A stretch of DNA of 63,444 nt from an uncultured Syntrophaceae bacterium (GTDB lineage: Bacteria; Desulfobacterota; Syntrophia; Syntrophales; UBA5619). Shown piece after piece: positions 1 through 53,694 of the stretch (positions are counted from its first letter, which is position 1; each line of letters opens with the position of its first letter). Made by a program: the position numbers and the translations under genes. The stretch covers positions 7,950 to 71,393 of the forward strand of contig CAYSSF010000002.1 in NCBI GenBank assembly GCA_964433455.1. Direction: 5' to 3'. Below the pieces are notes generated by a model, which saw only the letters and a program-made list of their open reading frames with translations, was not told the DNA's origin and made no database searches.

Positions 1-71
1 ATGGCGGCGTCGCCGAACAACTGTTCATTTTGAACCCTGCGGCTTTCACGCTCGATGTACTGATGCTGCAT
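1..71 (-). CDS. 5' end of an unidentified gene running off the window (MQHQYIERESRRVQNEQLFGDAA...)
   Basis: ATG at 71-69 (minus strand) with GAGG about 8 nt upstream. Only 23 codons are visible, so no product is assignable. Confidence 0.3.
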   Translation of the reverse strand, partial: MQHQYIERESRRVQNEQLFGDAA

Positions 72-216
72 TCGAATACCTCACTGTTTTAGGGTATCAT
101 AGCAGGGGATTGTTAAGCGTTGATGACCGGTCCGTGAAAATTTCATGAAATGGCATTGCGGAGGGACGCCCGAGAGTCCGAGGACCCGGAGGGTAGAAGG
201 GCAGGATTTCGCATCG

Positions 217-4338: not shown

Positions 4339-4488
4339 GACCTCCTTTCATATCGCGGTCTATCCTGATCATCCGCGGCCAATCCTTGTTCAAGCATCTC
4401 CGGAACCCAGGTGCGCCGATGAGAGATAGAACAAAAAGCCTGAGGATGATCCAGAAAGTATGTCCCTTTTCAGATTTCGGACTTCGGC

Positions 4489-4770
4489 TCATGATGGGGT
4501 AATGGTGAAGCGGTCGCCATTCAGCGGCGCCTGTTCGCCTTTTTTCCATTTCAGAACGATAATGAGCTTTTCCCGCAGGCTCTCTTTTCCCAGCCTGGCC
4601 TCCGCTTCCAGATCGAAAGCGACCGGATCCGTCGGTTTCAACGTGACGACCTCATCATTCTTGCGGATGCAGAACCTGCCCTTTTTGAGGGAGGCGACCA
4701 GGTGCTCCAACTGGTTGATCACATTCCCCAATGTCTCTTTGGATTTGACCTTCAAATGTTGAGTTGCCAT
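4489..4770 (-). CDS. small amphi-Trp-domain-like protein
   Basis: 93 aa with a GGGGAGA RBS. Clear paralog of 4862-5335 (shared QHL.(V/I)K(S/T)K, LE.L, LK(K/R)G, LKP, DLEAEA, K(I/L)...L.W). The family name is from memory of the amphi-Trp domain and is not verified. Confidence 0.6.
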   Translation of the reverse strand: MATQHLKVKSKETLGNVINQLEHLVASLKKGRFCIRKNDEVVTLKPTDPVAFDLEAEARLGKESLREKLIIVLKWKKGEQAPLNGDRFTITPS

Positions 4771-4861
4771 GCTGTCTCCCCTTTGCTGAATTGATATTTA
4801 AACCGGCAATGGCCAAACAGGGCCAATCCGTTTCCACATTCCGGAGAAACGCTATCGTTCA

Positions 4862-5335
4862 TCAGGGCTTTTTCCGCACGAATAGCTTCGACTGCTTCGC
4901 GCCTCGCCTTGCGGCTTTCTTCCGGATCGCTTCAGGTGACGCCTTGTCCTTCCGGGTGTCGCCCGCATCCGGTTGGTTTTCGAATGCTCCCCGTTCTGCT
5001 CCGCCGCTTTTGCGGGGTGAAAGCGGCGGATCCCGATGCTCGCCGTCCGCCAAATCCGGGCCGGCAATCGAAAATATCTCTTCCCCTCGCGGCCAGGTTT
5101 CCCGGATCTCCCATTGGAGTTTGAGGACGATTTTTTCCTTACTGATCGCATGGTCCGGCTTGGCCTCGGCCTCCAGATCCATGCTGATCGGTGTCCGGGG
5201 TTTGAGCAGGATGGACTTCCCGTCATGCGCGAGGAAAATAGTTCCCCGCTTGAGACATTCTATCAGGCTCTCCAGATATTCAACGGCAACGGAAAATCCT
5301 GTTTTCGTTTTGATCTGTAAATGCTGACTGGCCAT
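4862..5335 (-). CDS. amphi-Trp-domain-like protein with basic C-terminal extension
   Basis: 157 aa with AGGAGG 6 nt before the ATG. The N-terminal 85 aa are paralogous to 4489-4770. The tail is Arg/Lys/Pro-rich and low in complexity. Confidence 0.6.
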   Translation of the reverse strand: MASQHLQIKTKTGFSVAVEYLESLIECLKRGTIFLAHDGKSILLKPRTPISMDLEAEAKPDHAISKEKIVLKLQWEIRETWPRGEEIFSIAGPDLADGEHRDPPLSPRKSGGAERGAFENQPDAGDTRKDKASPEAIRKKAARRGAKQSKLFVRKKP

Positions 5336-5419: not shown

Positions 5420-5459
5420 TGTGAAGGGAATATGACAAAATCGTGACGATATTGTGAAG
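5420..5459 (-). promoter_or_regulatory. Pho-box-like array (4 phased half-sites) upstream of the amphi-Trp/phoH2/ppk gene string
   Basis: Minus strand reads CTTCACA(5459-5453), CGTCACG(5448-5442), TGTCATA(5437-5431), CTTCACA(5426-5420). Spacing is exactly 11 bp. The array ends 85 nt before ATG 5335. Confidence 0.6.
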
Positions 5460-5478: not shown

Positions 5479-5506
5479 TTTAACGAAAACGTCATCAACC
5501 GGTCAC
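5479..5506 (+). promoter_or_regulatory. Pho-box-like array (3 phased half-sites), duplicated copy of the array at 16906-16933
   Basis: TTTAAC(5479), CGTCAT(5490), GGTCAC(5501) at 11-bp spacing, 90 nt before ATG 5597. GTCATCAaCCGGTCACA here matches GTCATCAtCCGGTCACA upstream of the 812-aa gene. Confidence 0.6.
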
Positions 5507-5596: not shown

Positions 5597-6244
5597 ATGA
5601 GCAGATCCGAAACAGCCCTTTGCTTGTCCCTGTCCCCGTGCCGCCTTGACGGCGAAAAGATCCACTCTCAAAGGGCGGTCATAGAAAAGCTCAACGTATA
5701 CAAGCTCTTCGGAATCAGCATCGAAGACCTCCCGTTTTCCATAGGCGACACAACCGCCGGGAGCGAAGCGGAGCTGCAGGCCGTGGTGGTCGGCAAAAAA
5801 GAAAATGTCGACCTCCCCCTCACAATCATCCGGTCGCACTATTTTGCCAACATCATCAAAAGGACGGCCTCCGGCGAGCTGCCCACCCGGACCATGACAG
5901 ACCTGGAGAGGTATCTGGACGAAAATGCCGACGGCGTCTGGGAAAACAGTTGGGTCCGTTTTCCGATGGCCCTGCTGGGGTATTTCGCTCGACGGATCTT
6001 TCAGGACGACCTGCTGGCGGACAAGGCCGATCCGGACCAAGGCAACCGAAAGGCCCTTAACAAAGAAAATTATGGAAAGGAAAGGTTTGAATATGTATAC
6101 CGGCACCAACACCCACATGGACGCCTCGCAGGAGGGCGTCGTCATAGCCTGCAAACGGGACTACCTTCCGGATTCGCGGTCCGGGTCCTCCCTGGACGCC
6201 CCTATCGATCTCAAGCTGACACAACTGTTCAAAAGTCTTCGTAG
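5597..6244 (+). pseudogene. truncated duplicate (N-terminal ~165 codons) of the 812-aa unknown protein gene
   Basis: MSRSETALCLSLSPCRL...EKLNVYKLFGISIEDLPF...ENSWVRFP...LLADKADP aligns at roughly 75 % aa identity (hand count) with residues 1-~165 of 14380-16818. Homology is lost near nt 6100, and the frame then runs out-of-frame over the kinase 5' end. Confidence 0.7.
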
Positions 6245-7736
6245 AAACGTTTCCATTTTCATGGTCGCCACCGACCCCCTCGGGATGATCCGCCTGGCCT
6301 CTTCCAACGCCGGGCTGCTGTTGGGTTGCAACCTCTCCGAACTGCTGGAGGTAGACATCCGGACCTTGTTCAGCGACGAACCGGGACGAACGAACGATAT
6401 CATGGCCGATCTGGAAACCGAAGGGGAGTTGGAAAATCTGGAGATGGTTTTGAAAAGGAAAGACGGAGATCCATTGCATGTCGACATCTCCGCTTCCCTG
6501 CTGATCGGCGAAGATCGACAACGGCTGGGGACCATCTTTCTGCTCCGGGACATCACAGAAAAAAAGAAGATGGAAGACCAGTTGCGCCATTCACAAAAGA
6601 TGGAGGCGATCGGAACCCTCGCCGGCGGGATCGCCCACGACTTCAACAATCTCCTGACCGGAATCCAGGGCTACGCCTCCCTGATGCTTTTCGACTTGCA
6701 GCCGCAGCATCCCCATTACGAAATGGTCAGAAGCATCGAACAGCAGATTCAAAGCGGCGCGGACCTCACAAAGAAACTGCTGGGGTTTGCCAAAGGGGGA
6801 AAGTACGAGGTCAGACCCATCGATATCAACGACCTCGTCCGAAAAAGCGTCAGGATCTTCGGTCGCACACGCAAGGAGATCAAGGTGCACGGCAGGTATG
6901 CGGAGCCGATCGAGACCGTCGAGGTCGATGCCAGCCAGATCGAGCATGTCCTGCTGAACCTCTATATCAACGCCTGGCAGGCGATGCCCGAGGGGGGTGA
7001 TCTGTACATCGACACAGAAAACATCATGCTGGATCAACCCTTCCTCAAGACCTACAATATCAAACCGGGACTCTTTGTAAAAGTCTCCGTTACGGACACC
7101 GGGGTCGGTATGGACGCGGAAACCCAACACCGGGTGTTCGAACCCTTTTTCACAACCAAGGAGCGGGGCCGGGGAACAGGCCTCGGCATGGCTTCCGCGT
7201 ACGGCATCATCAAGAGCCACGGCGGCGTCATCAAGGTCTACAGCGAAATCGGGAAAGGGACGACCGTGACCATCCATCTGCCGGCGTCGAACAAGCAGAA
7301 ATTCCGCGAGATCAAACCTCGCCATCAGCTCAGACGGGGTCATGAAACCATTCTGCTCATCGATGACGAAGAGTCGAATGCCCAGGTGACGGGGGAGTTG
7401 CTTGAAAGAGTTGGTTACCGCGTGTTGACGGCGAACAACGGCATGGAAGGAATGGCGATATTCAAAAAGCGGAAGGCGGAGATCTCCGTCGTGATTCTGG
7501 ACATGATCATGCCCGGAATGACGGGCAGAGAAACATTCGAAGCCTTGAAAGAGATCGAACCCACCGTCAGGGTTATCCTGTCCAGCGGTTACAGCCTCAA
7601 CGGCCAGGCCCGGGAAATCCTGGAGCAGGGCTGCCGGGGGTTCATCCAGAAGCCCTTCGATATATCGAGACTCTCGCAAAAGATCGGGGAGGTTTTACTG
7701 GACGGCAGCGGGGAAACGGTCAAACGGGCGGGATGA
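6072..7736 (+). CDS. hybrid sensor histidine kinase (PAS-HisKA-HATPase-REC)
   Basis: PAS-like region followed by the H-box GGIAHDFNNLLTGIQGY. ATPase motifs DTGVGM and GTGLGMA. C-terminal receiver domain ILLIDDEE...ILDMIMPGM...KPF. The start is ambiguous (ATG 6072, 6093 or 6117), and the track ORF begins at 5925. Confidence 0.85.
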   Translation: MERKGLNMYTGTNTHMDASQEGVVIACKRDYLPDSRSGSSLDAPIDLKLTQLFKSLRRNVSIFMVATDPLGMIRLASSNAGLLLGCNLSELLEVDIRTLFSDEPGRTNDIMADLETEGELENLEMVLKRKDGDPLHVDISASLLIGEDRQRLGTIFLLRDITEKKKMEDQLRHSQKMEAIGTLAGGIAHDFNNLLTGIQGYASLMLFDLQPQHPHYEMVRSIEQQIQSGADLTKKLLGFAKGGKYEVRPIDINDLVRKSVRIFGRTRKEIKVHGRYAEPIETVEVDASQIEHVLLNLYINAWQAMPEGGDLYIDTENIMLDQPFLKTYNIKPGLFVKVSVTDTGVGMDAETQHRVFEPFFTTKERGRGTGLGMASAYGIIKSHGGVIKVYSEIGKGTTVTIHLPASNKQKFREIKPRHQLRRGHETILLIDDEESNAQVTGELLERVGYRVLTANNGMEGMAIFKKRKAEISVVILDMIMPGMTGRETFEALKEIEPTVRVILSSGYSLNGQAREILEQGCRGFIQKPFDISRLSQKIGEVLLDGSGETVKRAG

Positions 7737-7833
7737 ATCACGATCCGGGATCTCCTTGGAACACGATCTACAACGCATCCGAACCTGATGGACATCTTCT
7801 ATGAGGCAATCGACGAGAAGGTGTAGACGATCC

Positions 7834-7932
7834 GACCTGCATCGGTATCGAGAACCGACGCTCTTTGAGATAACGCGGGAAGTGAAGAATGATGAATAGA
7901 CAGTCATCGTAATCATCTGTCTTCGGCAACTG
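7834..7932 (-). pseudogene. 99-nt fragment of a corA-like gene (inverted copy of 38476-38574)
   Basis: The minus strand encodes QLPKTDDYDDCLFIILHFPRYLKERRFSIPMQV, against NQLPKIDDYGEYLFIILHFPRYLKELRFSIPMQV in the CorA-like gene. Hand alignment gives about 83 of 99 nt identical with no gaps. Confidence 0.8.
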
Positions 7933-7941
7933 GACGGAACT

Positions 7942-8094
7942 ATGCTCCGCACCGCGGCCGTCCAACAGATTCACGCCGTGATCCGGCAGAACTCGTCGGC
8001 ATCGGATGAGCTCTCCGCCACGGCCGAAGAACTCTCCGGCCAGGCCTACCAGCTTCGGGATACCATTCAATTCTTCAGAACGGACGAAGGATAG
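7942..8094 (+). pseudogene. 3'-terminal fragment of a methyl-accepting chemotaxis protein gene
   Basis: 50 codons read MLRTAAVQQIHAVIRQNSSASDELSATAEELSGQAYQLRDTIQFFRTDEG*. This matches the conserved MCP signalling-domain C-terminus (..QQNAASAEE.SA.AEELS.QA..L...V..F). No upstream MCP body is present. Confidence 0.7.
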
Positions 8095-14379: not shown

Positions 14380-16818
14380 TCACGCGCGGAGGACGCGCTG
14401 GTTTCTACCGCCAGCGGCCTGCAAGGGCGGGCGCTCGGCCTCGCGCCGATCGAAGGCGACTGTGATGATCAGGAGGGCGATCAGCTTTTGCAGGAGTTCG
14501 GGCGAGGCATGTTCGTCCTGCAGAACCTGCCTGAACCATTCGGAGATCGGCCGGTTCCCGCCGATCGAACGGAGTAGGTTGCGAACCCCCTGCCGTTCGC
14601 TGCACGGGGTCGAGGCGATGCGTCTTAGATCCTCCTCCAGAAATCTGACTCCTTCCAGGGCATGGCTGATCCTCAGGTCGGTGCGGTAGTAGTTCTCGGC
14701 GGTCCGGTTGAAGTCGCCGGCCTGCATCTCCATCGGGGAACGGGCCTTGGCCTTTTCCAGGATGGCCCGGGTCAGTTTTCCCCCTGCGGAACAGCGCTCC
14801 GGCTCCTCGATTCTTTTTTCGAGATCCTCGATCGTTGCGGACATCCGGAGGAGTTCGATCAGCTCCGCCCCATCCTCCTTGATGGTGCGAACGAGGGCCC
14901 GGCAATACTCCCGGTGGTGGACCCGCAGATACCCGGGGTAGCGCCGGCTGGACCTCACCCGCTCCGTTTTTTCCACGATCCGCCGCAGGAACCGGTTCCC
15001 AGAATCCTTGCGGATGAAGAAGGTGGGGATGCCCACGGCCTGCCCGAAGATGATCTGCCGCCGCTCGCTCTCGACAAAGGGATCGTCGGGGATATCGGCG
15101 TGGGCGACGCTCTCTTCGGCAATATATTTGAAGGCCAGGGCCGTGAGGAGGTTTTGCAGATCCACGGCCCTGGCCATATCCCCTTCCAGGCTGAAGAAGA
15201 GGCTGTAGGTGCGGCCCTCGAAACCGGAAAATCCCATGGCCGCGAATTCACGCAGCTTGTTGAACAGATAGAGAGACATCCTTTTGTCGAAGACGCCCAA
15301 TTCGGTGAGATCCCGTTTCAACCGGTCATGGTTTTGAGGCGTTCCATCCAGGGCCGGGCTCTTCTCCGTGCTCCTCAGGGCCACCAGGTAATCGATCAGC
15401 CGAAAATCGGGGATAAAATCGCCGCGGAGCCGAAAAAGGGCGCTGATCGCCCGGTCGAGCCAGGGAGGACCGAAGGGGGTCACGGTCTTTCCGAAGAGAT
15501 TGATGTCGGCCTTTTTCTGCCAGCGCCTCCAGAGCATGCGCAAGTGGGTGAAATCGAGTTCGTGGGGCAGAAATCCGAGAATGCTTTCGGGGTGGAATTC
15601 CGAAAAATCGAGCCGGTAGGGAGTGGCGCTGTAAGTGCCGACCAAAAGGGGCAGGAAATGCTCATGGATCTTGATGACCAGATCTCCCAGATATTTCTCG
15701 TGCCGGCTGTCGAATCCGGAGGCCGGATCCTTCAGTAGATCGGTGAGTTTGCGGCTGCCGAGGCTGACGTGGGTCCCGTTGTTGGCCAGGCTGATGTTGG
15801 AGGTGTTCGGCAGCACCACGAGATTCCGGTTGATGATGCCCGCCTCGCGGAGCTTCCCCAGCGCATTGAGCTGGCTGCGGCTCAGGACCCGGTGGCAGAG
15901 ATGCATGTATTCCTGCTTCACCTCCCCGCGGTTCCAACCCGAGAGACAGGGATTCATGAAAAGTTCCCGGTAAAAGGCATCGGAGATGCAGGCGTTCAGC
16001 TTTTTCTGCCGGATCGGCGGATGGGGCGAGTAGAAGACCAACGCCCTCTGGCCGCTCTCGGCAAGGCCGAAACGGCTGTTGGCGTAGAGGGTCAGCAACT
16101 GCGTCAGCAGAAACCGTTTTGCCGATTCCCTGGCCACCTCCCGTCCCATTTGGGTCCCGGGAGAGAGGGATGAGACATGGAAGGAGCAGACCTCCGGCGA
16201 GGTGTTGTCGCTGAGAAAGTGGTTCATCAGCGTCTGGCCCGTCCCGGCGATGAGCGGCGGCTCTCCGTCGATCGCCTCGGCCAGAGCGATCTTAAGGAGA
16301 TAGCTGATCGGAATGCGGATGTACTCTCTCCCCTCCTGAAGGAAGATGAAATTGGCAAGGTCGGTCCGTTCCCCCCGGGCCGGGTCGCCCTTGTCGGCCA
16401 GGAGATCCTTCTCGAAGACCCGTCGGGCGAAGGGGCCGAGCAGTTCCCTTGGGAAGCGGACCCAACTGTTTTCCCATACCCCGTCGGCATTCTCCTGGAG
16501 GTACCGTTCGAGATCGGTCATGGCCCGGTCCGGCAATTCGCCCGCCGCCCTTCGCCTGACAATATTGGCAAAGTAATGGGATTGGACGATGGTGATCGGC
16601 AGGTCAACCTCTTCCTTTTTCCCGATCACAACGGCCTGCAACTCCGTTTCGCTCCCGGCGGTGGTGTCATGCAGGGAAAAGGGAAGGTCCGCCACGTCGA
16701 CCCCGAACAATTTATAAACATTCAATTTTTCCATTCCTTCCCGGGTGGAGAGAACCTCCTCTTCCGGAAGGCGGCTCGGCGCCATGGCCAAACAGACGCT
16801 GCTTTCATTTCTGCTCAT
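14380..16818 (-). CDS. large (812 aa) conserved-looking protein of unrecognised family
   Basis: Uninterrupted ORF with coding-like composition. No signal peptide or TM segment is visible by eye, and I recognise no motif. ATG 16818 has a GGGGAAAGG RBS and aligns with the start of the duplicated fragment; the track start at 16848 is TTG. Confidence 0.8.
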   Translation of the reverse strand: MSRNESSVCLAMAPSRLPEEEVLSTREGMEKLNVYKLFGVDVADLPFSLHDTTAGSETELQAVVIGKKEEVDLPITIVQSHYFANIVRRRAAGELPDRAMTDLERYLQENADGVWENSWVRFPRELLGPFARRVFEKDLLADKGDPARGERTDLANFIFLQEGREYIRIPISYLLKIALAEAIDGEPPLIAGTGQTLMNHFLSDNTSPEVCSFHVSSLSPGTQMGREVARESAKRFLLTQLLTLYANSRFGLAESGQRALVFYSPHPPIRQKKLNACISDAFYRELFMNPCLSGWNRGEVKQEYMHLCHRVLSRSQLNALGKLREAGIINRNLVVLPNTSNISLANNGTHVSLGSRKLTDLLKDPASGFDSRHEKYLGDLVIKIHEHFLPLLVGTYSATPYRLDFSEFHPESILGFLPHELDFTHLRMLWRRWQKKADINLFGKTVTPFGPPWLDRAISALFRLRGDFIPDFRLIDYLVALRSTEKSPALDGTPQNHDRLKRDLTELGVFDKRMSLYLFNKLREFAAMGFSGFEGRTYSLFFSLEGDMARAVDLQNLLTALAFKYIAEESVAHADIPDDPFVESERRQIIFGQAVGIPTFFIRKDSGNRFLRRIVEKTERVRSSRRYPGYLRVHHREYCRALVRTIKEDGAELIELLRMSATIEDLEKRIEEPERCSAGGKLTRAILEKAKARSPMEMQAGDFNRTAENYYRTDLRISHALEGVRFLEEDLRRIASTPCSERQGVRNLLRSIGGNRPISEWFRQVLQDEHASPELLQKLIALLIITVAFDRREAERPPLQAAGGRNQRVLRA

Positions 16819-16905
16819 AGAGACCTTTCCCCGCAATGTTCCCCGCAACCATCATCCCAAACGTGGGAGATACTGAAAACTTTTAACGGGACTTAGCCGG
16901 TTCAT

Positions 16906-16933
16906 GTGACCGGATGATGACGCTTGGATGAAG
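16906..16933 (-). promoter_or_regulatory. Pho-box-like array (3 phased half-sites) upstream of the 812-aa gene
   Basis: Minus strand reads CTTCAT(16933-16928), CGTCAT(16922-16917), GGTCAC(16911-16906) at 11-bp spacing, ending 88 nt before ATG 16818. Confidence 0.6.
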
Positions 16934-17064: not shown

Positions 17065-17103
17065 TTTCACGCAAACTTTATTCGAATGTCATCATCACGT
17101 CAC
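17065..17103 (+). promoter_or_regulatory. Pho-box-like array (4 phased half-sites) upstream of the dehydrogenase/PhnX-like unit
   Basis: TTTCAC(17065), CTTTAT(17076), TGTCAT(17087), CGTCAC(17098) at 11-bp spacing, ending 75 nt before ATG 17178. Confidence 0.6.
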
Positions 17104-17177
17104 AGTTGTCGGTTAAGCGAATCTGGGTTGCTCCGTGCGGAAGCAATCAAGCACATTCTTACCGGAGGAGATGAAGC

Positions 17178-17450
17178 ATGCGAATCGGATTCATTGGCTT
17201 GGGGCGCATGGGCTTTCCCATGGCGCGTAACCTTATCAAGGCGGTAGTGATCATCGGAGATTTCACGGACAACTCGAAAAAAAAGATCACGGAACTGTTT
17301 CCCTCCGATTGGAAGATCGCCATCGTATCGGTTGCGGAAATGGACGCGGAGTTGGCCGATGCGGAGGTCATCATTCCGGAACACATCATGGTTGACGGAC
17401 CGTTTCTCGATCGGGCAAAAAAACTCAGGCTGATCCAGACAGCGGCATGA
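17178..17450 (+). pseudogene. chimeric, truncated dehydrogenase remnant
   Basis: The first 22 aa (MRIGFIGLGRMGFPMARNLIKA) look like a 3-hydroxyisobutyrate/6PGDH-type NAD-binding N-terminus. The rest (AELADAEVIIPEHIMVDGPFLDRAKKLRLIQTAA*) looks like the N-terminal substrate domain of a D-2-hydroxyacid dehydrogenase that stops before its NAD domain. Confidence 0.5.
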
Positions 17451-17508
17451 TCCCCCTCAATGCCCTCAATCGGATTGCCTGATTCTAATTCCCAACAATG
17501 GAGATTGT

Positions 17509-18606
17509 ATGGCGGCAAAAATGGCAAGAGCGGCTGTTATGACGAAAATCAATGGAGATTTGGAAATCCGGGAGTATCCGTTACCCCGGGTGGCGCAAGG
17601 GGCCATGCTGGTCAGGGTGTCCTGTTGCACGATATGCGGTTCGGACATCCTGGCATGGTCGGGGAAGAAGAAAGCCCCGGTCCCCATGATTCTCGGCCAT
17701 GAAATCGTAGGAAGGATTGTAAAACTTGGCGTGGGGGTGGTCTCCGATTCGGGGAATCGGACGCTGAAGGCAGGGGATCGAATCACGTGGACCATCATGG
17801 ACAATTGCGGGAAGTGCTATTATTGCCGGGAAAAGGGACTGATGATGAAATGCCTGAATCTGAAGAAGTACGGGCATGACTGCTGCGACGATTATCCCCA
17901 TTTCACGGGAGGTTTCGCCGAATACTGCTACATCACCCCCGGTACCTGTGTCGTCAAGGTGCCGGATGAACTGACCGACGCAGAGGCGGCGCCGGCCAAT
18001 TGTGCCCTGGCAACAGTTGTGGCAGGATGGGAAGCCGCCGATCTGAAGCCCTTTGAGAACGTCCTGATCCAGGGCGCCGGCGCCCTGGGATTTTATGCGG
18101 CTGCCCTGGCAAAACACTATGGATGCAGGAGAATCATCGTGACGGACATCCTGGCTCATCGCCTCGAGGCGATCAGGAAGTTCGGCGCGACGGACACGAT
18201 CAATACCGCGGGGATGAGGGATGAGGATCTCGTCGGCGCGGTCCGCGACCTTACCGCCGGTTTCGGTGTTGATGCAGCCATGGATGTCGCCATTGCCCCG
18301 AGCATTGTCCCCGTCGGATTGAAGTGTTTGCGAATGGGCGGCCGATAGATTGAGCATGGCAATACGTTTCCCGGAGCAACCGCCACGTTCGATGTTTCCG
18401 ACATCGTGTTTCGGTGTCTCACGATTCGGGGAGTGCATAACTATGATACGCGGCATCTCCAATGGGGGATTGATTTTCTAGCACAGACAAGAGGGACTTT
18501 TCCTTTTGAGAAACTCGTCATCGGGCGGTTTCCCCTCGCGGAGATCAACCAGGCGATGAATCTTGCCCGTTCAGGAAAGGCGATTCGCGTCGCGATCGTC
18601 CCATAG
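17509..18606 (+). pseudogene. zinc-type (MDR) alcohol dehydrogenase interrupted by one in-frame TAG
   Basis: GHEIVG, structural-Zn loop CGKCYYCREK, and NAD motif GAGALG. Track ORFs 17509-18348 and 18406-18606 are in the same frame. ...LRMGGR-TAG(18346-18348)-IEHGNTF... reads through as one ~365-aa ADH. Confidence 0.7.
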
Positions 18607-18648
18607 CGATTCCTCAAAGGGGGAAAATATATCAGGAGGAAGTAAAAC

Positions 18649-19377
18649 ATGGGAAAAATCAGTATGGTGATGTTTGACCTTTCGGGAACGACGGTCTACG
18701 ACGATACGGGGGTGCGGGACTGTCTCTACCAGGCAGCGCAGGAGTACAAGCTCAATGCCACACCGGAAGAAATCCTCTATCATATGGGAACAAACAAGAT
18801 CCATCTCTACCAGTTCCTGATTGCCCGGCAGATGGGAAGGAAGATCGATATCGAAGATTTCGAGAAGACCAAGGATCCGGATACATACGAAGAGGCCCGG
18901 AAGGTCTTCGACCGGTACCAACAGATCATGCTCGAATATTACCGCCAGCAGTGCAAGGCCATTCCCGGGGCAACCGACACGCTCCGCTGGTGCCACAAGC
19001 ACGGGATCAAGGTGGCCACGGACACGGGATTTCACCGGCTCATCACGGATGCCCTCATGGACGGCCTGGGGTGGGTGAGGAATGGTCTGGTGGATATTGC
19101 CGTGGACGTAGAGCATGTTCCCGGAGAGATCGGCCGACCGGCCCCCTTCATGCTCTTTTACGCCATGACCATGCTGAATATTCAGAGCGTCCACGAGGTG
19201 ATCAAGATCGGGGATACGCCGGCTGACATGCTGGAAGGCAAAAATGCGGGTTGCCGCGGCGTGGTAGGCGTGCTCAGCGGTCCCCGGCCGGTCACCGACT
19301 GGGGAAAATACTGGCATACCCACGTGATTCCCAGTGTGGGCGATCTTCCGGAATTGATCGAGAAAGAGTTCTCCTGA
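18649..19377 (+). CDS. HAD-superfamily hydrolase, phosphonoacetaldehyde hydrolase (PhnX)-like
   Basis: HAD motif I is MFDLSGTTV, and there is a late GDTPADM motif. Size (242 aa) and pattern fit the phosphonatase-like subgroup. AGGAGG RBS. Confidence 0.65.
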   Translation: MGKISMVMFDLSGTTVYDDTGVRDCLYQAAQEYKLNATPEEILYHMGTNKIHLYQFLIARQMGRKIDIEDFEKTKDPDTYEEARKVFDRYQQIMLEYYRQQCKAIPGATDTLRWCHKHGIKVATDTGFHRLITDALMDGLGWVRNGLVDIAVDVEHVPGEIGRPAPFMLFYAMTMLNIQSVHEVIKIGDTPADMLEGKNAGCRGVVGVLSGPRPVTDWGKYWHTHVIPSVGDLPELIEKEFS

Positions 19378-33512: not shown

Positions 33513-34703
33513 CTACGATCCCAGCAGCGCAGCTTTGTCCGTCCGTTCCCAGGGAAGATCAAGATCTGTTCTGCCGACCTGTCCGTACACGGCAAGCCGC
33601 CGATAGAAACCGTCCCGCGCAATCGAAGGAAGGTGTCGGAGATTGAACTGTTTCACAATCGCGGCCAGCCTAAAATCGAACAGCCGTTCAACCCGGTCAG
33701 ACAGTTCGTCATCGGCAATTTTTCGCGTGCCGAAAGTTTTGATCTGGACGCTCACGGGACGCGCCAAGCCGATGGAATAGCTCAACTGCACTTCACACTC
33801 GTCTGCCAGTCCGGCTGCTACGACATTCTTCGCCGCATAGCGGGCCGCGTAGGCGCCGACGCGGTCGATGCGCAACGGATCCTTGCCGCTCAGGGCGGCC
33901 TCGCTTTGCCGCGCATATCCGCCGTAAGTGTCCACACTGTTCTTTCTGCCGGTAAGCCCCGAATGCTGTGCAGGGCCACCGCCGATGAAAGGTCCGTCCG
34001 GATTGATGAAGATCTGCGTCTGGTCATCCGGCTTGATGGGTTCGTCCCGGAACACGGGATCGATGACCGAAGAGCGAATCTCCTCCGCCATTTTTCGCGG
34101 ATCGGGCTCGCCCGCCTTCGTCTGGCTAGCGATCACCGTAAGGCTGTGAATCCGGTAGGGCGAACGCTCCCGGTACCCGATCCCGACCTGTATCTTTCCG
34201 TCGGGATCCAGGTAGGGGAGCACCCCCTGCACCCTGACATCCCGGAGCCTCCGGGCGAGTTTGTGGGAGAGCCAGATAGGCAGGGGCATCAGAACAGGCG
34301 TCTGGTTGCAGGCATAGCCGAAGAGCGTTACCTGGTTCTTGACCGGTATCCGTTCAATCTCCTGATCCGACAGGGTTCGTTCATCGAAGCGACGGTAGCC
34401 ATCCGGCTCGATCTCCTTGAGACTTGTCACGATGCTGCAGTTCTTGGCGTTGAAGGTCCGGCGATTGTAACCCACCTGGTCGATCACGCTTCTGGCGATA
34501 TTCGCCACGTCCGCCGATGCCTCGGAATCGAACCGCGCCGCGACAAAGACGATGGATGTGGCTACCGCGCACTCGGCAACAATGCGCGACCACGGATCCT
34601 GCTGCAGGAAATGGTCGACAATGCTGTCGCTGATGAGGTCGCACAGCTTGTCGGGATGGCCTTCGGTGAGCGACTCGGATGTAAACAGAACGACCTTTTT
34701 CAT
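33513..34703 (-). CDS. divergent S-adenosylmethionine synthetase (MetK-like)
   Basis: SESLTEGHPDKLCD, GLTGRK, VDTYGG, SGKDP and AAYAARY motifs are present. The canonical GAGDQG loop is replaced (PVKNQVTLFGYA). The ATG overlaps the upstream ATPase stop (ATGA at 34700-34703). Confidence 0.8.
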   Translation of the reverse strand: MKKVVLFTSESLTEGHPDKLCDLISDSIVDHFLQQDPWSRIVAECAVATSIVFVAARFDSEASADVANIARSVIDQVGYNRRTFNAKNCSIVTSLKEIEPDGYRRFDERTLSDQEIERIPVKNQVTLFGYACNQTPVLMPLPIWLSHKLARRLRDVRVQGVLPYLDPDGKIQVGIGYRERSPYRIHSLTVIASQTKAGEPDPRKMAEEIRSSVIDPVFRDEPIKPDDQTQIFINPDGPFIGGGPAQHSGLTGRKNSVDTYGGYARQSEAALSGKDPLRIDRVGAYAARYAAKNVVAAGLADECEVQLSYSIGLARPVSVQIKTFGTRKIADDELSDRVERLFDFRLAAIVKQFNLRHLPSIARDGFYRRLAVYGQVGRTDLDLPWERTDKAALLGS

Positions 34704-37700
34704 TGCAACTCTCCTTTCCCATTTCCCTTGGCGAGTTCATTCACGATCACCGGCAGTACCGATGTTCCGGCAATGACCGCCCCGTCTGCGATGTTTATCG
34801 CCGTGTTGCCCAGCAGATTTCTCAATCCCGGCATCGCGACGGCCAATCCCTGGACTGCAAAAGATCCGGCGAGAGCCCCGGTGAGATGCCGATTCGGAGG
34901 CAACGGATTCCCGCCGAAGAGAGTCCGTTCCGTCGAACGGCAGCTCAAGGCGTGCAGGAGCTGCCCGGAAGAGAGGCTCAAGAACGCCAGCGTGCCGGCC
35001 TGCGCGCCCAAGCCGTACCGGACAACGCCGTATCCGTATGCGGCGAGCGCCCCCGAGGACAGCATGGCGGACTGAAGCATGATTTTCTTCAAATCGGCGG
35101 TGGTCAAGATCTCCTCGTCCTGTTGCCTCGGCGGTCTGGTCAGCACGTCCGGCTCCGGCGGTTCGAGGGCGAGCGCCAATCCCGGGAAGATGTCCGAGAT
35201 GAGATTGATCCAGAGAAGCTGCATGGTGTTCAGGGGCTGGCCGAGGCCGGCCCCGATCGCCACGAACATCACCATGATCTCGCTCATATTGGTGGAGAGC
35301 AGGTAGTGGATCGCTTTGCGGATGTTGTTGTAGATGGTCCTCCCCTGGCTGATCGCCACGATCATGGTCTGGAGGTTGTCGTCCTCCAGCACCACGTCGG
35401 CCACCTCGCGTGCCAGGTCCGTTCCGGTGTGGCCCATGGCAATGCCCACGTCGGCGGCCTTCAAAGCGGGTCCGTCGTTGATCCCGTCGCCGGTCATGGC
35501 CACCACCCGTCCCGCCTTTTGCAGAGACTGCACGATCTGCAGTTTGTGGGCGGGGCTGACCCGTGAAAAAATGGGGACGCGTTCGCTAAGGGAGCGCAGA
35601 ATATCGGGATCCATGTCGGCCAGATGGGTCGAGTCGAGAATTTCCATCTCCTCTCCGCGGCCGAGATCCAGTTCCTTTCCGATGGCGTACGCGGTCGGCG
35701 TCTGATCCCCGGTGATCATAACCGTATCGATGCCGGCTGTGTGAAATTGGGCAATCAGTTCCTTCACACCTTCCCTGATCGGATCGGCCATCCCGGTCAT
35801 TCCGAGCCAGATGTAGTCTTGTCCATTTGGATGGTCGCCGCATGGGCGTTCTCCGGATGCATCCACCGCCGCATAGGCAAAACCCAGAATTCGAAGGGCG
35901 CGGCCCGCCATCCGCTCGTTGGCGATCTCGATGACCCGCCGATCCTCATCGGTGAGGCGGCACTGTCTTCCCTGCACGATCTGAAAGGTGCATCGGGAGA
36001 GGATTTCGCGGGGACTTCCCTTGGCGGCATAAATGATCCTTCCCCGGTTGTCCTCGGCGCTGTGCAGCGTCGTCATGATGTTTTGGCCTTCGGACCGGTA
36101 CAGAATGCGAAGACGGGGATTTCCAGCCCGTAACGGTCGCGGATCGATTCCGGCGCTCAGGGCCATATGGATCAGCGCGTTTTCGGTGGACGAGCCTGTG
36201 ACCTCATAACACCCATCCCGGCCAGTTACTTCACTTTCATTGCACAACACCGAAACGTGGATCAGCCGCAGCAATTCGTCGCATGCAAAGGGGCTGATAT
36301 AGCCGTTCCCTGAAACGAACTTCCCGTCATGAAGGCGCATGGATCGCATCCCGGAGTAAAGCTCCTGCACGGACATGGTGTTCAGCGTGATGGTGCCTGT
36401 TTTGTCGAGGCAGATGGTCTGCAGGGAGCCAAGGGTTTCAACCGCTTCGAGATGGCGGATGAGCACATGCTGCTTTTTCATGTTCCGCAAACCCAGCGCA
36501 AGCGTTGTCGTCGCCACGGCCGGCAGCCCCTCGGGAACGGCGGCCACGGCAAGGGCGATGGAGGACTTGAGCATCTCCAGAAACCCGTATCCCCGCAGCA
36601 TACCGATCACAAAGACGCTCCCGCAGATCCCGATCGACATCAGGCCCAATTGCGTCCCCATGTGGTCGAGCTGCCTCTCCATGGGCGTATCCGGCGTTTT
36701 GATCTCGGAAGAAAGGCTCTGGATCTTTCCGATCTCCGTATACCGGCCGGTGCCCACGGCCACGGCCAGCCCCTGTCCTCCGATCACGAGCGTTCCCATG
36801 TAAACCATGTTACGCCGCTCGGCGAGGGGAATCTCACAACCGGCCGGCAGGACTGCTGCGGTCTTTTCAACGGGCATGCTCTCGCCGGTCAGGGCCGATT
36901 CATCGACGGTCAGGTGCTCCGTTTCGATGAGCCTTGCATCCGCCATAATGTAGCTGCCCGGCCGGAGAACGAGGATGTCGCCCGGCACCACATCCTCCGT
37001 GCTTCTCTCCTCAATGACGCCGTCGCGGATCACGGAGGCGTTCGGCCGCACCAGTCGTTTGAGCGAGTGGATGGTCTTTTCGGATCCGCTTTCGGTGAGG
37101 TAACCGATGGCGGAATTGACAACTACAACGGCCGCAATCACAACAGCATCAGCAAGGCCGCCGGTGAAAAGGGAAATGGCCGCCGCCACACCCAGAAGCG
37201 CCACGGGAAGAGATTTGAATTGACTCAATAGAATGGAGAGTCCCGAACGGGGAACCGACTCGGGAAGAATATTCGGGCCGTATTTTCGGATCTTGGCAAC
37301 GGCGGTCTGACCCGACAGCCCGATTGCCCTGTGGGAATCATGCCGCTCCAGGACATCGGCCGCCCCCATGAGATGCCACGGCTCCGCCGTCTGCTGTTCC
37401 GCCTTGGTAACCAGCTTCCGCAGGATCCGTCTGCTGGATGCTTTGTCGTCCCGCGCGGATTTTCCCCGCCGGATACCCGCCTGTGAACGATCGATCAGCA
37501 CTGTTTGCGGACCTAAGGAATTCCCCTGATTTGCATACTTTACAACGAACTTCAAGATAACGGCGGCAATCTCGCCAGGCGTCCTGTCCGGTCTGTGGAC
37601 AATCAAAACCGTGCCTGTCAGCGTGCTGGCCGAAATATGCAGGATTTCATTTCGTTTCGACAGCCCCTCCTCCAGATAGGCTTGGCAGGAATTTGAATGG

Positions 37701-37762
37701 TAGAGGCCGGCAACTCTGAAACGCGCTCTTCCTTTGACGGCGACATGAATCGGATGGACCAC
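34700..37762 (-). CDS. P2-type cation-transporting P-type ATPase with N-terminal HMA-like domain
   Basis: TGESMPVEK, PEGLP in TM4, DKTGTIT, KGSPREIL, TGDQ and GDGINDGPALKAADVGIAMG. The first ~75 aa (HVAVKGRARFRVAG...STLTGTVLIVH) resemble the small HMA-like proteins. GTG start with a GGAGA RBS. Confidence 0.88.
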   Translation of the reverse strand: MVHPIHVAVKGRARFRVAGLYHSNSCQAYLEEGLSKRNEILHISASTLTGTVLIVHRPDRTPGEIAAVILKFVVKYANQGNSLGPQTVLIDRSQAGIRRGKSARDDKASSRRILRKLVTKAEQQTAEPWHLMGAADVLERHDSHRAIGLSGQTAVAKIRKYGPNILPESVPRSGLSILLSQFKSLPVALLGVAAAISLFTGGLADAVVIAAVVVVNSAIGYLTESGSEKTIHSLKRLVRPNASVIRDGVIEERSTEDVVPGDILVLRPGSYIMADARLIETEHLTVDESALTGESMPVEKTAAVLPAGCEIPLAERRNMVYMGTLVIGGQGLAVAVGTGRYTEIGKIQSLSSEIKTPDTPMERQLDHMGTQLGLMSIGICGSVFVIGMLRGYGFLEMLKSSIALAVAAVPEGLPAVATTTLALGLRNMKKQHVLIRHLEAVETLGSLQTICLDKTGTITLNTMSVQELYSGMRSMRLHDGKFVSGNGYISPFACDELLRLIHVSVLCNESEVTGRDGCYEVTGSSTENALIHMALSAGIDPRPLRAGNPRLRILYRSEGQNIMTTLHSAEDNRGRIIYAAKGSPREILSRCTFQIVQGRQCRLTDEDRRVIEIANERMAGRALRILGFAYAAVDASGERPCGDHPNGQDYIWLGMTGMADPIREGVKELIAQFHTAGIDTVMITGDQTPTAYAIGKELDLGRGEEMEILDSTHLADMDPDILRSLSERVPIFSRVSPAHKLQIVQSLQKAGRVVAMTGDGINDGPALKAADVGIAMGHTGTDLAREVADVVLEDDNLQTMIVAISQGRTIYNNIRKAIHYLLSTNMSEIMVMFVAIGAGLGQPLNTMQLLWINLISDIFPGLALALEPPEPDVLTRPPRQQDEEILTTADLKKIMLQSAMLSSGALAAYGYGVVRYGLGAQAGTLAFLSLSSGQLLHALSCRSTERTLFGGNPLPPNRHLTGALAGSFAVQGLAVAMPGLRNLLGNTAINIADGAVIAGTSVLPVIVNELAKGNGKGELQ

Positions 37763-37827
37763 GACGGTGATCTCCTACAGAAGTTCGTTTCCGGTCACAG
37801 AAATCTACGAAAACCGATAGGTACCAT

Positions 37828-37866
37828 AGCGAAATACTATGACAACCCTATGACATTTCGATTACA
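37828..37866 (-). promoter_or_regulatory. Pho-box-like array upstream of the ATPase/MetK-like operon
   Basis: Minus strand reads TGTAAT(37866-37861), TGTCAT(37855-37850), TGTCAT(37844-37839), and a weak TTCGCT(37833-37828) at 11-bp spacing, 66-77 nt before GTG 37762. Confidence 0.6.
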
Positions 37867-37949
37867 GAAATATAAAATTTCCCGAAAGATGGCTGAAGGC
37901 GGCATGGGGTATCGCGAAAAGATAGTGACGGCAACGGCCGCATACGACA

Positions 37950-37977
37950 TTTAACGGAATTGTCATCCATCTGTCAC
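37950..37977 (+). promoter_or_regulatory. Pho-box-like array upstream of the small ORF/CorA-like operon
   Basis: TTTAAC(37950), TGTCAT(37961), TGTCAC(37972) at 11-bp spacing, ending 78 nt before ATG 38055. Confidence 0.6.
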
Positions 37978-38054
37978 AATTTCGTGGGATCATATGTCGT
38001 TTCTTTGGAAAACTTCAGCAGCAATGCAGCGAAGCTCTAAAGAGGAGCGAATCG

Positions 38055-38354
38055 ATGAACCGACCTCAATCCGAATCTGACGACAAAGCGGAACAAGTGA
38101 AGCATCGTCAATCCATAGAAGATTTGTCCATGTTACTGGAGATGCCCCGGGATTGCGTTGTCGCCGCCTATGAGCAGGAGCTGGACGCGATGGGACGGAT
38201 GGCGCGGGTTAGAGATTATCTTCCCATCCTGGTGAGCCGGCGGGTGAAGAACTTGCTCCAATCTCGCCGGGCTTTTGACGTTGCAACGGGCCGGTCAACG
38301 GCTCATCAAAATGAACACTTCACCGAAGGAAGAATGCATCATGGGATGGAATGA
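38055..38354 (+). CDS. small hypothetical protein (possibly DUF3562-like)
   Basis: 99 aa with a GAGGAG RBS. It overlaps the CorA-like start by 14 nt. The family guess is from memory only. Confidence 0.45.
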   Translation: MNRPQSESDDKAEQVKHRQSIEDLSMLLEMPRDCVVAAYEQELDAMGRMARVRDYLPILVSRRVKNLLQSRRAFDVATGRSTAHQNEHFTEGRMHHGME

Positions 38355-39279
38355 AATCAAAGGCAACAACATTCGTTGGATCAACATCGATCACCCGAAC
38401 AGCGAGACGGTCAATGCTTTGGCGGAAGTCCATCCATTCCACAAGCTTGCCCTCGATGATTGCCTTTCGAAAAATCAGCTCCCGAAAATAGATGATTATG
38501 GGGAATATCTATTCATCATTCTACACTTCCCCCGTTATCTCAAAGAGCTCAGATTCTCGATCCCGATGCAGGTCGCCCTCTTTCTGGGCCGCGATTTTCT
38601 TGTGACGGTCCATTCCGGCGACCTCAAGCCCATTAACCGCATCTTCGAAGCGTGCCGCGACAACGAGGCAGCCCGGAGCAATTACATGGGCAAGAGCTCC
38701 TATTACCTCGTTTACCAACTTATCCTGGCACTGGTGGAAAATCTCCTGAAGATGGCGGCCAAGGTTATGTCGAACATTGAGGTCCTGGAAGAGAAGGTCT
38801 TTGACGAATCTGTCGACGCTGTCCGCGACGTGACCGGGCTTCGCCACAACATCGCAAACCTGCGGCGAACGATCTTTCCGCTCAAGCGGGTGTTGCACGA
38901 ACTGGAGCGCGGAGTCGACCATTTTTCCAAAGATGAGACGATGGCTGTTTACTTCGGCGATCTTTCCGACTCGATCGACAAGGTTTGGGAGATCATCGAA
39001 TCCTGTAAAGAGATGAGCGAGATCTACAAGGACACGGACTACATCATCAGTGCGGATCGCACCAACAGGATCCTGACCCTTCTCACGATTGTCTTCACCT
39101 TTTCGATACCGGCATCGCTCATCGGGACGTTTTACGGCACGAACGTCAGAATCCCGGGAGGTCTCGAAGACGCTCCGACATTCCTCGGCCCGTACACGAC
39201 CTTCATTCTGATCGTCGCGGCCTCGGTTTTTTCCGTCGTCGTTATGCTTGCCCTCTTCCGCAAATTCCGCTGGCTGTGA
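38341..39279 (+). CDS. CorA-family divalent cation channel with GTN in place of GMN
   Basis: CorA-like length and architecture: a cytoplasmic domain followed by two C-terminal TMs. The loop motif reads FYGTNVRIPG (ggc acg aac at 39136-39144). ATG 38341 is preferred; the track ORF starts at 38275. Confidence 0.8.
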   Translation: MGWNEIKGNNIRWINIDHPNSETVNALAEVHPFHKLALDDCLSKNQLPKIDDYGEYLFIILHFPRYLKELRFSIPMQVALFLGRDFLVTVHSGDLKPINRIFEACRDNEAARSNYMGKSSYYLVYQLILALVENLLKMAAKVMSNIEVLEEKVFDESVDAVRDVTGLRHNIANLRRTIFPLKRVLHELERGVDHFSKDETMAVYFGDLSDSIDKVWEIIESCKEMSEIYKDTDYIISADRTNRILTLLTIVFTFSIPASLIGTFYGTNVRIPGGLEDAPTFLGPYTTFILIVAASVFSVVVMLALFRKFRWL

Positions 39280-51687: not shown

Positions 51688-52305
51688 ATGAAGATCTTTA
51701 TCGTCTATTATTCCATGTATGGCCATATCCACCGGATGGCGGAAGCGGTCCGGGAAGGCGCCGGAGAAATCGGCGGGGCGGATGTTCGTCTCTACCGCGT
51801 GCCCGAAACCCTCCCGGAAGAGGTCCTGAAAAATATGGGCGCCCTGGAGCCTCAGAAAGCGATGGCCCATGTCCCGGTCTGCAAGGTGGAAGACCTGCCC
51901 CAGGCGGATGCCATCATCTTCGGCACGCCCACGCGTTTCGGCAACATGTGCGGCCAAATGCGCCAGTTTCTCGATGCGACCGGGGAACTCTGGAGCCGGG
52001 GGGCTCTGGTCGGAAAGGTAGGCAGCGTCTTCACCAGCAGCGCAACCCAGCATGGCGGGCAGGAATCGACCATCCTCAGTTTTCATATCACCTTGCTGCA
52101 CCAGGGAATGGTCGTGGTCGGCCTGCCCTACAGTTTCGAGGGGCAGATGCGCATCGACGAGATCACCGGCGGATCGCCCTACGGGGCATCCACCATCGCG
52201 GGGGGGCGAGGCGAACGCATGCCGTCGGAGAATGAACTGGCCGCGGCCCGCTTTCAGGGAAGACATGTGGCCGGGATTGCGTCCAAGCTGTCCGGGAGAC
52301 CTTAA
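51688..52305 (+). CDS. wrbA: NAD(P)H:quinone oxidoreductase, WrbA-type flavodoxin-like protein
   Basis: [14 protein letters not shown]...[10 protein letters not shown]...GGQE...GSPYGAS is typical of WrbA. AGGAGG before ATG 51688; the track start is 51655. Confidence 0.88.
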
Positions 52306-52363
52306 AGACGCAGGCCGCCGCAACCTCGGAGAGATTCCTCCGTCAACAATGAATGCCCCCTAC

Positions 52364-52427
52364 CGTCATTCCCGTGAAAGCGGGAATCCAGGACAGGGCC
52401 GGATGCCGGATCAAGTCCGGCATGACA
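52364..52427. repeat. double-hairpin intergenic repeat element (the widespread type whose frames read ...SRESGNPG... / ...LDSRFHGNDG...)
   Basis: Hairpin 1 is ATTCCCG(52368-52374) tgaaag CGGGAAT(52381-52387). Hairpin 2 is ATGCCGGA(52403-52410) tcaag TCCGGCAT(52416-52423). There is only one copy in this window. Confidence 0.55.
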
Positions 52428-52535
52428 ACTTTTAACATGTTTACTTGCCGAAGTAATAATCCCGCTCGGCAAATGGGGAAGTGAAGTTTTGCAGACCGCG
52501 GCCCGAGCAAACCGGCGATCAAAGGAGGAGAACGG

Positions 52536-52871: not shown

Positions 52872-52971
52872 TCGGGGCATTTCTTAAGCGTCCGGAGGAA
52901 CGGATTTCAATCATCCGCCGGCCCGACGAAGGTTCCGGACAAAATGGACGGAGGAGGAGGTTTGGTCTGAT

Positions 52972-53676: not shown

Positions 53677-53694
53677 CGACCGGAGGCGGTTTAA

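Follow-up and report, generated by a model that had tools for sequence, protein, structure and literature searches.

A candidate carboxylate-amine ligase of the GCL/glutamine synthetase fold superfamily in a phosphate-starvation island of an uncultured Syntrophaceae bacterium

What might a large soluble protein do if its gene stands among phosphate-starvation genes and its sequence matches no known family? The question is raised by a 63,444-nucleotide stretch of DNA, here called the window, from an uncultured Syntrophaceae bacterium (GenBank assembly GCA_964433455.1, contig CAYSSF010000002.1, positions 7,950 to 71,393 of the forward strand). A gene on the minus strand of the window (14380-16818) encodes a protein of 812 amino acids, referred to below as the target. 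Its predicted structure points to the ligase superfamily that holds glutamate-cysteine ligase (GCL) and glutamine synthetase (GS), its promoter carries a Pho box, and its relatives are encoded beside genes of two lipid-enzyme families. Taken as a whole, the locus is best explained by a Pho-induced GCL-fold ligase in a lipid head-group pathway, a tentative reading that we would back with slightly less than even confidence.

Fold and family of the protein

A sequence-only reading of the window had described a long, clean open reading frame (ORF) that showed neither a signal peptide nor a transmembrane segment. Both points stand. The frame has the length given above, and the ATG at 16818 is likely its start codon, because an N-terminus beginning MSR at this point is common to the relatives of the target; an in-frame TTG upstream, at 16848, would give a protein of 822 amino acids. 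No signal peptide was seen in the protein. The highest 19-residue Kyte-Doolittle mean is 1.63, and it falls on a helix that is well packed in the structure model. The target would be a soluble enzyme of about 90 kDa; it has no clear membrane segment.

Does the protein belong to a family that has already been named? Searches with the target protein gave no match in Pfam or NCBIfam (at E<=1) or in PADLOC, and a sequence search of the PDB returned nothing meaningful. The protein is nevertheless far from an orphan. More than 2,951 relatives came out of a word-indexed search; the top 120 each have 775-848 amino acids, are unnamed or labelled 'hypothetical protein', and lack a Pfam domain, and the named ones among them come from Syntrophales, Geobacteraceae, and Thermodesulfobacteriota metagenome-assembled genomes (MAGs). 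When 1.84 billion cluster representatives were searched exhaustively with a profile, 866 clusters scored E<=0.001; the best 150 of the 866 were members of the family or fragments, and no link to a different family was visible in this library, which is unannotated. In a set with a single genome for each GTDB species, relatives are encoded at no fewer than 540 loci. The family is found in Syntrophales, Geobacterales, and Brocadia as well as in MAGs of Acidobacteriota, Nitrospinota, and Nitrospirota, and its cultured or named carriers include Syntrophus buswellii, Citrifermentans bremense, Trichlorobacter thiogenes, Geomesophilobacter sediminis, and Candidatus Brocadia sapporoensis. When 34 diverse members were scanned against Pfam, nothing rose above noise, and no match to families of the ligase superfamily appeared at E<=0.1, and the family fails the sequence models PF04262 (Glu_cys_ligase), PF04107 (GCS2), and Gln-synt_C. 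In the literature, no paper on the target family or on the three-gene module described below was found, and a study of phosphate limitation in D. alaskensis does not mention the family (PMC5193443). One protein of 228 amino acids (P0235; L and P numbers are our labels for loci and proteins) had the appearance of a short form consisting of the N-terminal domain only; it was rejected as such, since its contig has 1.7x coverage and apparent frameshifts.

Conservation within the family is concentrated at polar positions. Across 63 family sequences, which reach down to 31% identity, about 35 columns are invariant, most of them polar; they include D153, D204, N205, E209, R284, K301, C308, H309, H350, E386, D471, R473, E534, R536, R586, and R587. 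Judged by these residues, the family is one of enzymes, the invariant polar positions being an enzyme signature.

Which fold do these residues occupy? A first AF2 model, for which 30 close sequences were used, was of poor quality (pLDDT 65, core below 50), and its Foldseek matches were insignificant, yet they included YbdK and glutamine synthetase III (GS III). A confident AF2 model (pLDDT 90.9, pTM 0.92) was built from a diverse alignment, A3, of the 63 sequences. When this model was compared with the PDB by Foldseek, the best 14 matches were all GshF, GshA, yeast GCL or Dop, with probabilities of 0.72-1.00. The top match is the GCL domain of GshF (3LN7; probability 1.00, E 8.9e-3, the best of the set). 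The others comprise Escherichia coli GshA (2D32, 1V4G, 1VA6, 2D33), with TM-scores of up to 0.51 normalised to GshA, Francisella GshA (3NZT), yeast GCL (3IG5), and Dop (7OXV); PafA (4BJR) stands at rank 19 in the same list.

The conserved blocks of the family, aligned by eye, occur in the same order as those of GshA and YbdK. The family motif AGSETELQAVV corresponds to GLERETLRV in GshA and GIELEMQVV in YbdK, NGTHVSLG to SGVHYNFS and GQHVHVG, FLPLFVGTYSAAPYR to IPYLFGASPA and FVPHFIALSAASPY, PDFRLIDY to APIRPKR and WDIRPSP, and GFEGRxYS to YIEVRSLD and TVEVRVMD. Within the 63 sequences, E57, E59, and R402 are at least 90% conserved, and E209, H350, D471, R473, E534, and R536 are invariant. Because of the predicted structure and the order of the motifs, the target likely belongs to the ligase (GCL/glutamine synthetase) fold superfamily; sequence statistics do not confirm this placement. 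The model thus makes the protein probably a divergent ATP-dependent carboxylate-amine ligase. The sequence-only reading had spoken of an unrecognised family, which holds for sequence models and gives way at the level of structure, where a confident model leads to a known superfamily. As far as the model goes, what is new is an unnamed family inside that superfamily for which no sequence model exists.

How does the target compare with the named ligases? The best structural matches are GshA and the N-terminal domain of GshF (PF04262; 1V4G, 2D32, 1VA6, 3NZT, 3LN7), together with yeast GCL. By eye, its conserved motifs run in the order of those of GshA: first an E-x-E strand, then a G-x-H strand, an [AS][AS]xP-Y loop with an Arg after it, a D/P-x-R motif, and lastly an E-x-R strand. 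In contrast to GshA, the target is about 300 residues longer, has no detectable sequence or profile similarity to it, and belongs to a family with additional invariant Cys, His, Lys, and Arg residues, whose genes are found in putatively Pho-regulated operons with PSD-like and Lgt-like genes and not in glutathione synthesis. The GSETELQAVV motif resembles GIELEMQVV of YbdK, a member of GCS2 (PF04107; 1R8G, 1TT4); YbdK has 372 amino acids and is not among the top Foldseek matches of the good model. PafA and Dop (4BJR, 7OXV) fall in the same fold superfamily as the target, with Foldseek probabilities of 0.63-0.96 and no sequence similarity. They act on proteins, in the Pup-proteasome system of Actinobacteria, whereas the target has no Pup or proteasome genes nearby.

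A Pho box and a phosphate-starvation island

Is the gene controlled by phosphate? The Pho-box array that had been noted from the letters is present in front of the gene: three half-sites lie exactly 11 bp apart, the last of them is separated from the ATG by 87 nt, and a candidate -10 element follows (Table 1). A Pho box that replaces the -35 element and lies about 10 bp from the -10 is the classical layout of an E. coli Pho promoter. Alignment of the 200 nt upstream of the start codon from the target, a stub of a second gene copy in the window, and the loci L012, L090, and L003 revealed a single conserved block, TTCAY-N6-YGTCATCAnCCGGTCACA; some 10 nt beyond it stands CTAAAG, CTATAA or TATAAA, with which CTAAGT of the target aligns. 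The rest of the leader has diverged, while the Pho box and the -10-like element are kept in these five promoters, whose proteins are 62-85% identical. The box is likewise kept in L010 and L011, and L010-L012 retain a double match to the strict pattern.

The window as a whole is rich in such sites. The strict pattern, TCAYN6GTCAY, occurs 16 times where 1.56 occurrences are expected, and none of 100 shuffles reached 16. In a mapping to the listed ORFs, some 13 of the 16 stand directly in front of a gene; the genes behind such sites include the target, the stub, pstS2, and those for an EAL-GGDEF protein, a low-molecular-weight phosphatase, a P-type ATPase, and a PSD-like protein.

The setting is one of phosphate genes. 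Positions ~1-52400 of the window form a phosphate-starvation island, which contains ppk1, PIN-PhoH, the stub, a hybrid histidine kinase gene, pstSCAB, two PhnA-like/Phosphodiest genes, the target, dehydrogenase and HAD genes, phnCDE, EAL-GGDEF, Hydrolase_4, the low-molecular-weight phosphatase, phoB, phoR, phoU, and a second pst operon (pstBACS). The island also holds a gene for a 1157-residue fusion of an alkaline phosphatase, a metallophosphatase, and CBM96. The flanks proposed for the target are correct, with pstSCAB and the two PhnA-like/Phosphodiest genes on one side and the dehydrogenase, HAD, and phnCDE genes on the other.

Is this neighbourhood peculiar to one genome? The sequence-only reading had suggested that co-occurrence with pst and phn genes be looked for, and linkage to pho, pst, and phn genes does recur across phyla. 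Of 80 species loci, at least 28 have a specific Pho marker (PhoU, PstS, PhnJ, PIN-PhoH, or a PhoB at least 50% identical) within 8 kb; as many of the contigs are short, the true count may be higher. In Citrifermentans bremense, phoB-phoR-phoU lies between the target homologue and a pair of PSD-like and LGT-like genes. In L010-L012, the homologue stands next to Hydrolase_4, EAL-GGDEF, phoBR, phoU, and pstB. Neighbours on contigs of Smithellaceae, Geobacteraceae, and Syntrophaceae include pstSCAB-phoU-phoR, phnGHIJKLM, PIN-PhoH, EAL-GGDEF, DUF3047, Hydrolase_4, PstS-like, and PHO4 transporter genes. Promoter and context make it likely that the target is a member of the Pho regulon, and the recurrent linkage makes a phosphorus-sparing role a reasonable hypothesis.

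Partner genes and possible function

With which proteins might the ligase act? In 75 of the 80 species loci, a gene of the phosphatidylserine decarboxylase (PSD) family lies immediately downstream of the target homologue on the same strand, at a distance of -25 to +301 bp; on the Smithellaceae, Geobacteraceae, and Syntrophaceae contigs, this PS_Dcarbxylase-family gene often overlaps the homologue. A gene of the Lgt family (phosphatidylglycerol diacylglyceryl transferase; LGT) comes next in 69 of the 80, in several phyla. This nearly universal operon, which lay beyond the coordinates that the sequence-only reading covered, was the most telling clue. The five loci that lack an adjacent PSD-like gene are L010-L012, which hold the closest relatives (74-76% identity), and L054 and L058, in which the contig stops 103-250 bp past the homologue. 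In 19 of the 80 species, a DksA/TraR zinc-finger gene is found inside the operon, sometimes between the PSD-like and LGT-like genes.

The window itself contains the beginning of a PSD-like gene, about 14.3 kb from the target and on the same strand, with its start at position 70 and a Pho-box-like site upstream (Table 1). Its N-terminus aligns with the conserved M-HQYI[ED]RE of the PSD-like partners. No LGT-like gene was found within the window. Here the partners are probably present but dispersed in the Pho island, each under its own box.

Neither partner is the housekeeping enzyme: on the NCBIfam equivalogs, the PSD-like protein scores 150 bits where the cut-off is 371, and the LGT-like protein 27 bits where it is 119. 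Both have retained catalytic residues, in the PSD-like proteins the Asp, the His, and the self-cleavage site (GS|ST), in the LGT-like proteins the counterparts of Lgt R143, R239, and E243. The LGT-like proteins of L013-L086 (e.g., L005, 13969-15027) also have a strictly conserved ISFGCCYGKP where Lgt has NFINGELWG, and a conserved C-terminal extension, YTGRSxVTGSxLSFHV. These motif differences suggest a different acceptor or a covalent intermediate.

How could the three proteins work together? The target gene would be transcribed from a PhoB-type promoter in which the three-half-site Pho box replaces the -35 element, and would be switched on when phosphate is scarce. By analogy with the superfamily, the enzyme would bind Mg-ATP through conserved acidic and His residues, for which E57 and E59 on the first strand, E116 or E209, H350, and E534-x-R536 are candidates, and would activate a carboxylate as an acyl-phosphate and join it to an amine. 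Its putative partners are a pyruvoyl decarboxylase of the phosphatidylserine decarboxylase family and a membrane protein of the Lgt family, and the most likely joint role of the three would be to construct or alter a head group that is carried on diacylglycerol and derives from an amino acid. The Lgt-like enzyme would take diacylglycerol off phosphatidylglycerol and pass it to an acceptor with release of glycerol phosphate, the PSD-like enzyme would decarboxylate an amino-acid head group to an amine, and the ligase would supply either the acceptor or the final amide. The outcome would be a phosphorus-free or phosphorus-sparing membrane lipid. A place for the target in a lipid head-group pathway is a possibility that we favour tentatively. 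The ORF, the family, the match in fold, the conservation of the Pho box, and the synteny are established here, and from them we infer ligase chemistry, Pho induction, and a lipid substrate; the exact substrates and the order of the steps are speculation.

A more specific version can be formulated, which we regard as doubtful. The ligase, the PSD-like protein, and the Lgt-like protein might constitute a Pho-induced route, not previously described, to a phosphorus-free diacylglyceryl amino lipid. The Lgt-like enzyme would then move diacylglycerol directly to an amino-acid or dipeptide acceptor, possibly via a cysteine thiol as in lipoprotein lipidation; glycerol phosphate would be freed for reuse, and the decarboxylase and the ligase would shape a zwitterionic or anionic head group. 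Such a lipid would replace phosphatidylethanolamine or phosphatidylglycerol in anaerobes such as Syntrophales, Geobacterales, Brocadia, and Acidobacteriota.

Several observations weigh against a Pho-induced ligase of lipid head groups, and they touch each of its parts. As to the fold, the Foldseek E-values are modest (~0.01-0.25) and the global TM-score normalised to the query is 0.25-0.35, a low value that follows from the ~300 additional residues of the target. The residue equivalences to GshA and YbdK were set by eye, without structural superposition. The family profile found nothing in the PDB, and Pfam and NCBIfam give no link to GCL or GCS2. Comparison of this profile with YbdK by hhalign is not significant (E 0.11, probability 0.5%) and covers the SAASPY block only (EHFLPLFVGTYSAAPYRL against SRFVPHFIALSAASPYMQ); comparison with a four-sequence GshA profile, rebuilt from PDB alignments, is not significant either (E 0.2). 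As to the pathway, the target is not adjacent to PSD or LGT genes in the window or in L010-L012, and the LGT-like protein lacks an equivalent of Lgt His103. As to regulation, the strict Pho-box pattern lies upstream in just 7 of 71 more distant relatives, compared with 0.7% of control segments, and neither expression nor PhoB-binding data for the family were found in the literature.

The last two points would also favour the view that there is no Pho control at all, the half-site array being a chance repeat and the location among phosphate genes incidental. This is very unlikely. The 16 sites in the window, mostly at promoter positions, far exceed expectation, the array and the -10-like element are kept in five diverged promoters, including that of the stub, and the pho/pst/phn linkage recurs in several phyla. 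When a relaxed two-half-site score of at least 10/12 is applied, 28% of the 71 relatives have a site as against 6.4% of controls, a 4.4-fold enrichment, and many relatives without an upstream box sit behind pho genes on the same strand.

If Pho control is accepted, two other accounts of the protein have to be weighed. The likeness of fold might mislead, and the protein might have a non-ligase Pho role as a Dop-like hydrolase or amidase, a phosphotransferase, a regulator or a scaffold. We consider this unlikely: the 14 consecutive top Foldseek matches come from one superfamily, the conserved Glu, His, and Arg motifs follow, by eye, the order seen in GshA and YbdK, and some 35 invariant, mostly polar residues point to an enzyme rather than a scaffold. 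It is nonetheless consistent with the lack of a significant sequence or profile link to GCL families, with the presence of the hydrolase Dop among the structural matches, and with the extra invariant residues C291, K301, Y304, C308, H309, and R586-R587, for which we know of no counterpart in GCL. Somewhat less improbable, though still a minority view, is a GCL-fold ligase with a soluble product, for instance a thiol or amine of gamma-glutamyl or other dipeptide-like type, or a compound for storage or signalling, in which case the adjacent partners would reflect a different joint role, such as the modification of a protein or peptide instead of a bulk membrane lipid. The fold is that of enzymes that make soluble gamma-glutamyl-cysteine and of PafA, a protein modifier; the target has no membrane segment, a DksA/TraR-type zinc-finger gene recurs in the operon as noted above, and the known acceptor of Lgt is a protein cysteine. 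Against a soluble product stand the embedding of the module in Pho islands and the origin of two of its three conserved partners from families whose known members act on diacylglycerol lipids; furthermore, no conserved small peptide gene was noticed, although no systematic search for one was made. A head-group ligase accordingly remains our preferred reading, at the strength given at the outset.

A stub of a second copy, neighbouring genes, and wider meaning

Has the gene been duplicated? The N-terminal region of the target had been described from the letters as a module that is duplicated elsewhere in the window. A copy does exist: tblastn finds it at 5597-6097 on the plus strand, with 65% identity over 167 amino acids (E 3e-66). 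It is a stub of a full gene, however, and not a reusable domain. DNA similarity between target and stub extends over the Pho box and codons 1 to ~155 and ends at ~6060, about 15 nt before the candidate ATG (6075) of a histidine kinase gene (Table 1). The stub is closest to the full-length proteins P0013, P0009, and P0014 (83-85%), whereas the full copy of the window itself is 69% identical. In L090, which encodes P0014, a full-length gene of 804 amino acids occupies exactly the place of the stub, and both flanks agree with those in the window: ppk1, PIN/PhoH, and Amphi-Trp lie to one side, pstSCAB and a pair of Phosphodiest genes to the other. In L012, an orthologue of the kinase gene directly follows the full-length gene, and the kinase orthologues of L012 and L013 adjoin full-length members. 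Most simply read, a deletion removed codons ~156 to the end from the resident copy and left the stub, and a second-lineage copy at 14380-16818 carries the function. The Pho box of the stub probably now drives both the stub and the histidine kinase.

The stub was also considered as a stand-alone domain or a kinase-fused sensor. This was rejected, as its nearest relatives are full-length and L090 and L012 hold full genes. The low dN/dS between stub and target (0.115) first suggested a functional domain and is more readily accounted for by a full-length ancestor that was long under purifying selection; dS is saturated, which indicates an old split between the two lineages.

Table 1. Coordinates of the features discussed (positions in the window).
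Feature	Position	Strand	Basis or remark
Coding sequence, 812 codons plus stop; predicted divergent carboxylate-amine ligase, GCL/GS fold superfamily	14380..16818	-	
Pho-box array of the target, CTTCAT-N5-CGTCAT-N5-GGTCAC, three half-sites at 11-bp phase (16933-16928, 16922-16917, 16911-16906)	16906..16933	-	sequence and conservation
Candidate -10 element CTAAGT	16891..16896	-	9 nt (16897-16905) past the last half-site
Stub, first ~155 codons of a second gene copy	5597..6060	+	tblastn and DNA alignment
Pho box of the stub, CGTCAT (5490-5495) and GGTCAC (5501-5506), degenerate third half-site upstream	5479..5506	+	
Hybrid histidine kinase, PAS-HisKA-HATPase-REC	6075-7736	+	right after the stub, behind its Pho box
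PSD-like gene start, first 23 codons (MQHQYIERESRRVQNEQLFGDAA)	1..70	-	tblastn, translation; runs off the left edge
Pho-box-like site (TCACGGACCGGTCAT)	123..137	-	~55 nt upstream of the PSD-like start codon

Further observations concern the surroundings of the stub. Near an A-rich run at 6063-6072, the ORFs of the stub (frame 2) and of the kinase (frame 3) overlap, and there may be a frameshift fusion of the two or an assembly error at this place. At 4460-5335 on the minus strand lie two tandem small genes, 34% identical to each other, whose relatives give an Amphi-Trp-like match; two overlapping Pho-box-like sites (5432-5457) stand upstream of them, divergent from the stub, and the same gene adjoins a family member in L003, L090, and L091. 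Relative to the remainder of the window, the AT skew is unusually positive in 6001-8000 (0.185), which coincides with the kinase gene, and in 52001-54000 (0.146).

Elsewhere in the window, the dehydrogenase genes at 17100-18650 on the plus strand, past a Pho-box-like site at 17089-17103, look broken: one ORF of 90 amino acids has just the start of NAD_binding_2, and a zinc-ADH ORF of 279 amino acids ends inside the C-terminal domain. They may be pseudogenes or assembly frameshifts. At 33513-39279, genes for an S-adenosylmethionine (SAM) synthetase, for a P-type cation ATPase that has HMA_2 at its N-terminus, and for a CorA-like transporter stand together, with Pho-box-like sites at 37839 and 37963. 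The SAM synthetase and ATPase pair is also near a family member in L003 and L004, and a CorA gene is near one in L091; the cluster may represent Pho-linked cation transport. Beside the module in other genomes (L005, 8240-9757; L001, 8525-9853; and others), there is often a gene for a protein of 442-505 amino acids without a Pfam domain, whose N-terminus gives a weak match to NF033939, an outer-membrane trimeric porin of Desulfovibrio type (E 1.4e-9). The protein may serve as a porin in phosphate starvation.

What would such a module mean for the bacteria that carry it? Anoxic sediments and water columns are rich in phosphorus-free lipids, many of which have not been traced to the genes that produce them. 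Pho-regulated lipid remodelling has been described for PlcP with glycosyltransferases, for BtaA/BtaB (DGTS), and for OlsBA/OlsF (ornithine lipid) (e.g., PMC5193443, PMC6298996). The likeness of the present module to these systems is one of logic only, that of Pho-controlled lipid enzymes that would spare phosphorus; none of the PlcP, BtaA/BtaB or OlsBA/OlsF enzyme families is represented in the three-gene module. No description of Lgt-like diacylglycerol transfer from phosphatidylglycerol in combination with a PSD-like decarboxylase and a GCL-fold ligase was found in the literature.

The carriers of the family are environmentally important anaerobes: syntrophs, metal reducers, anammox bacteria, and Acidobacteriota. 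If the proposal were correct, it would introduce a new logic for Pho-controlled lipid remodelling, the direct, Lgt-type reuse of the diacylglycerol of phosphatidylglycerol, and would provide a gene marker for reading environmental lipidomes. Even the conservative reading defines a new family within the GCL/GS superfamily. The conserved three-gene module offers a testable lead, in cultured strains as well, to a possibly new phosphorus-sparing lipid pathway.

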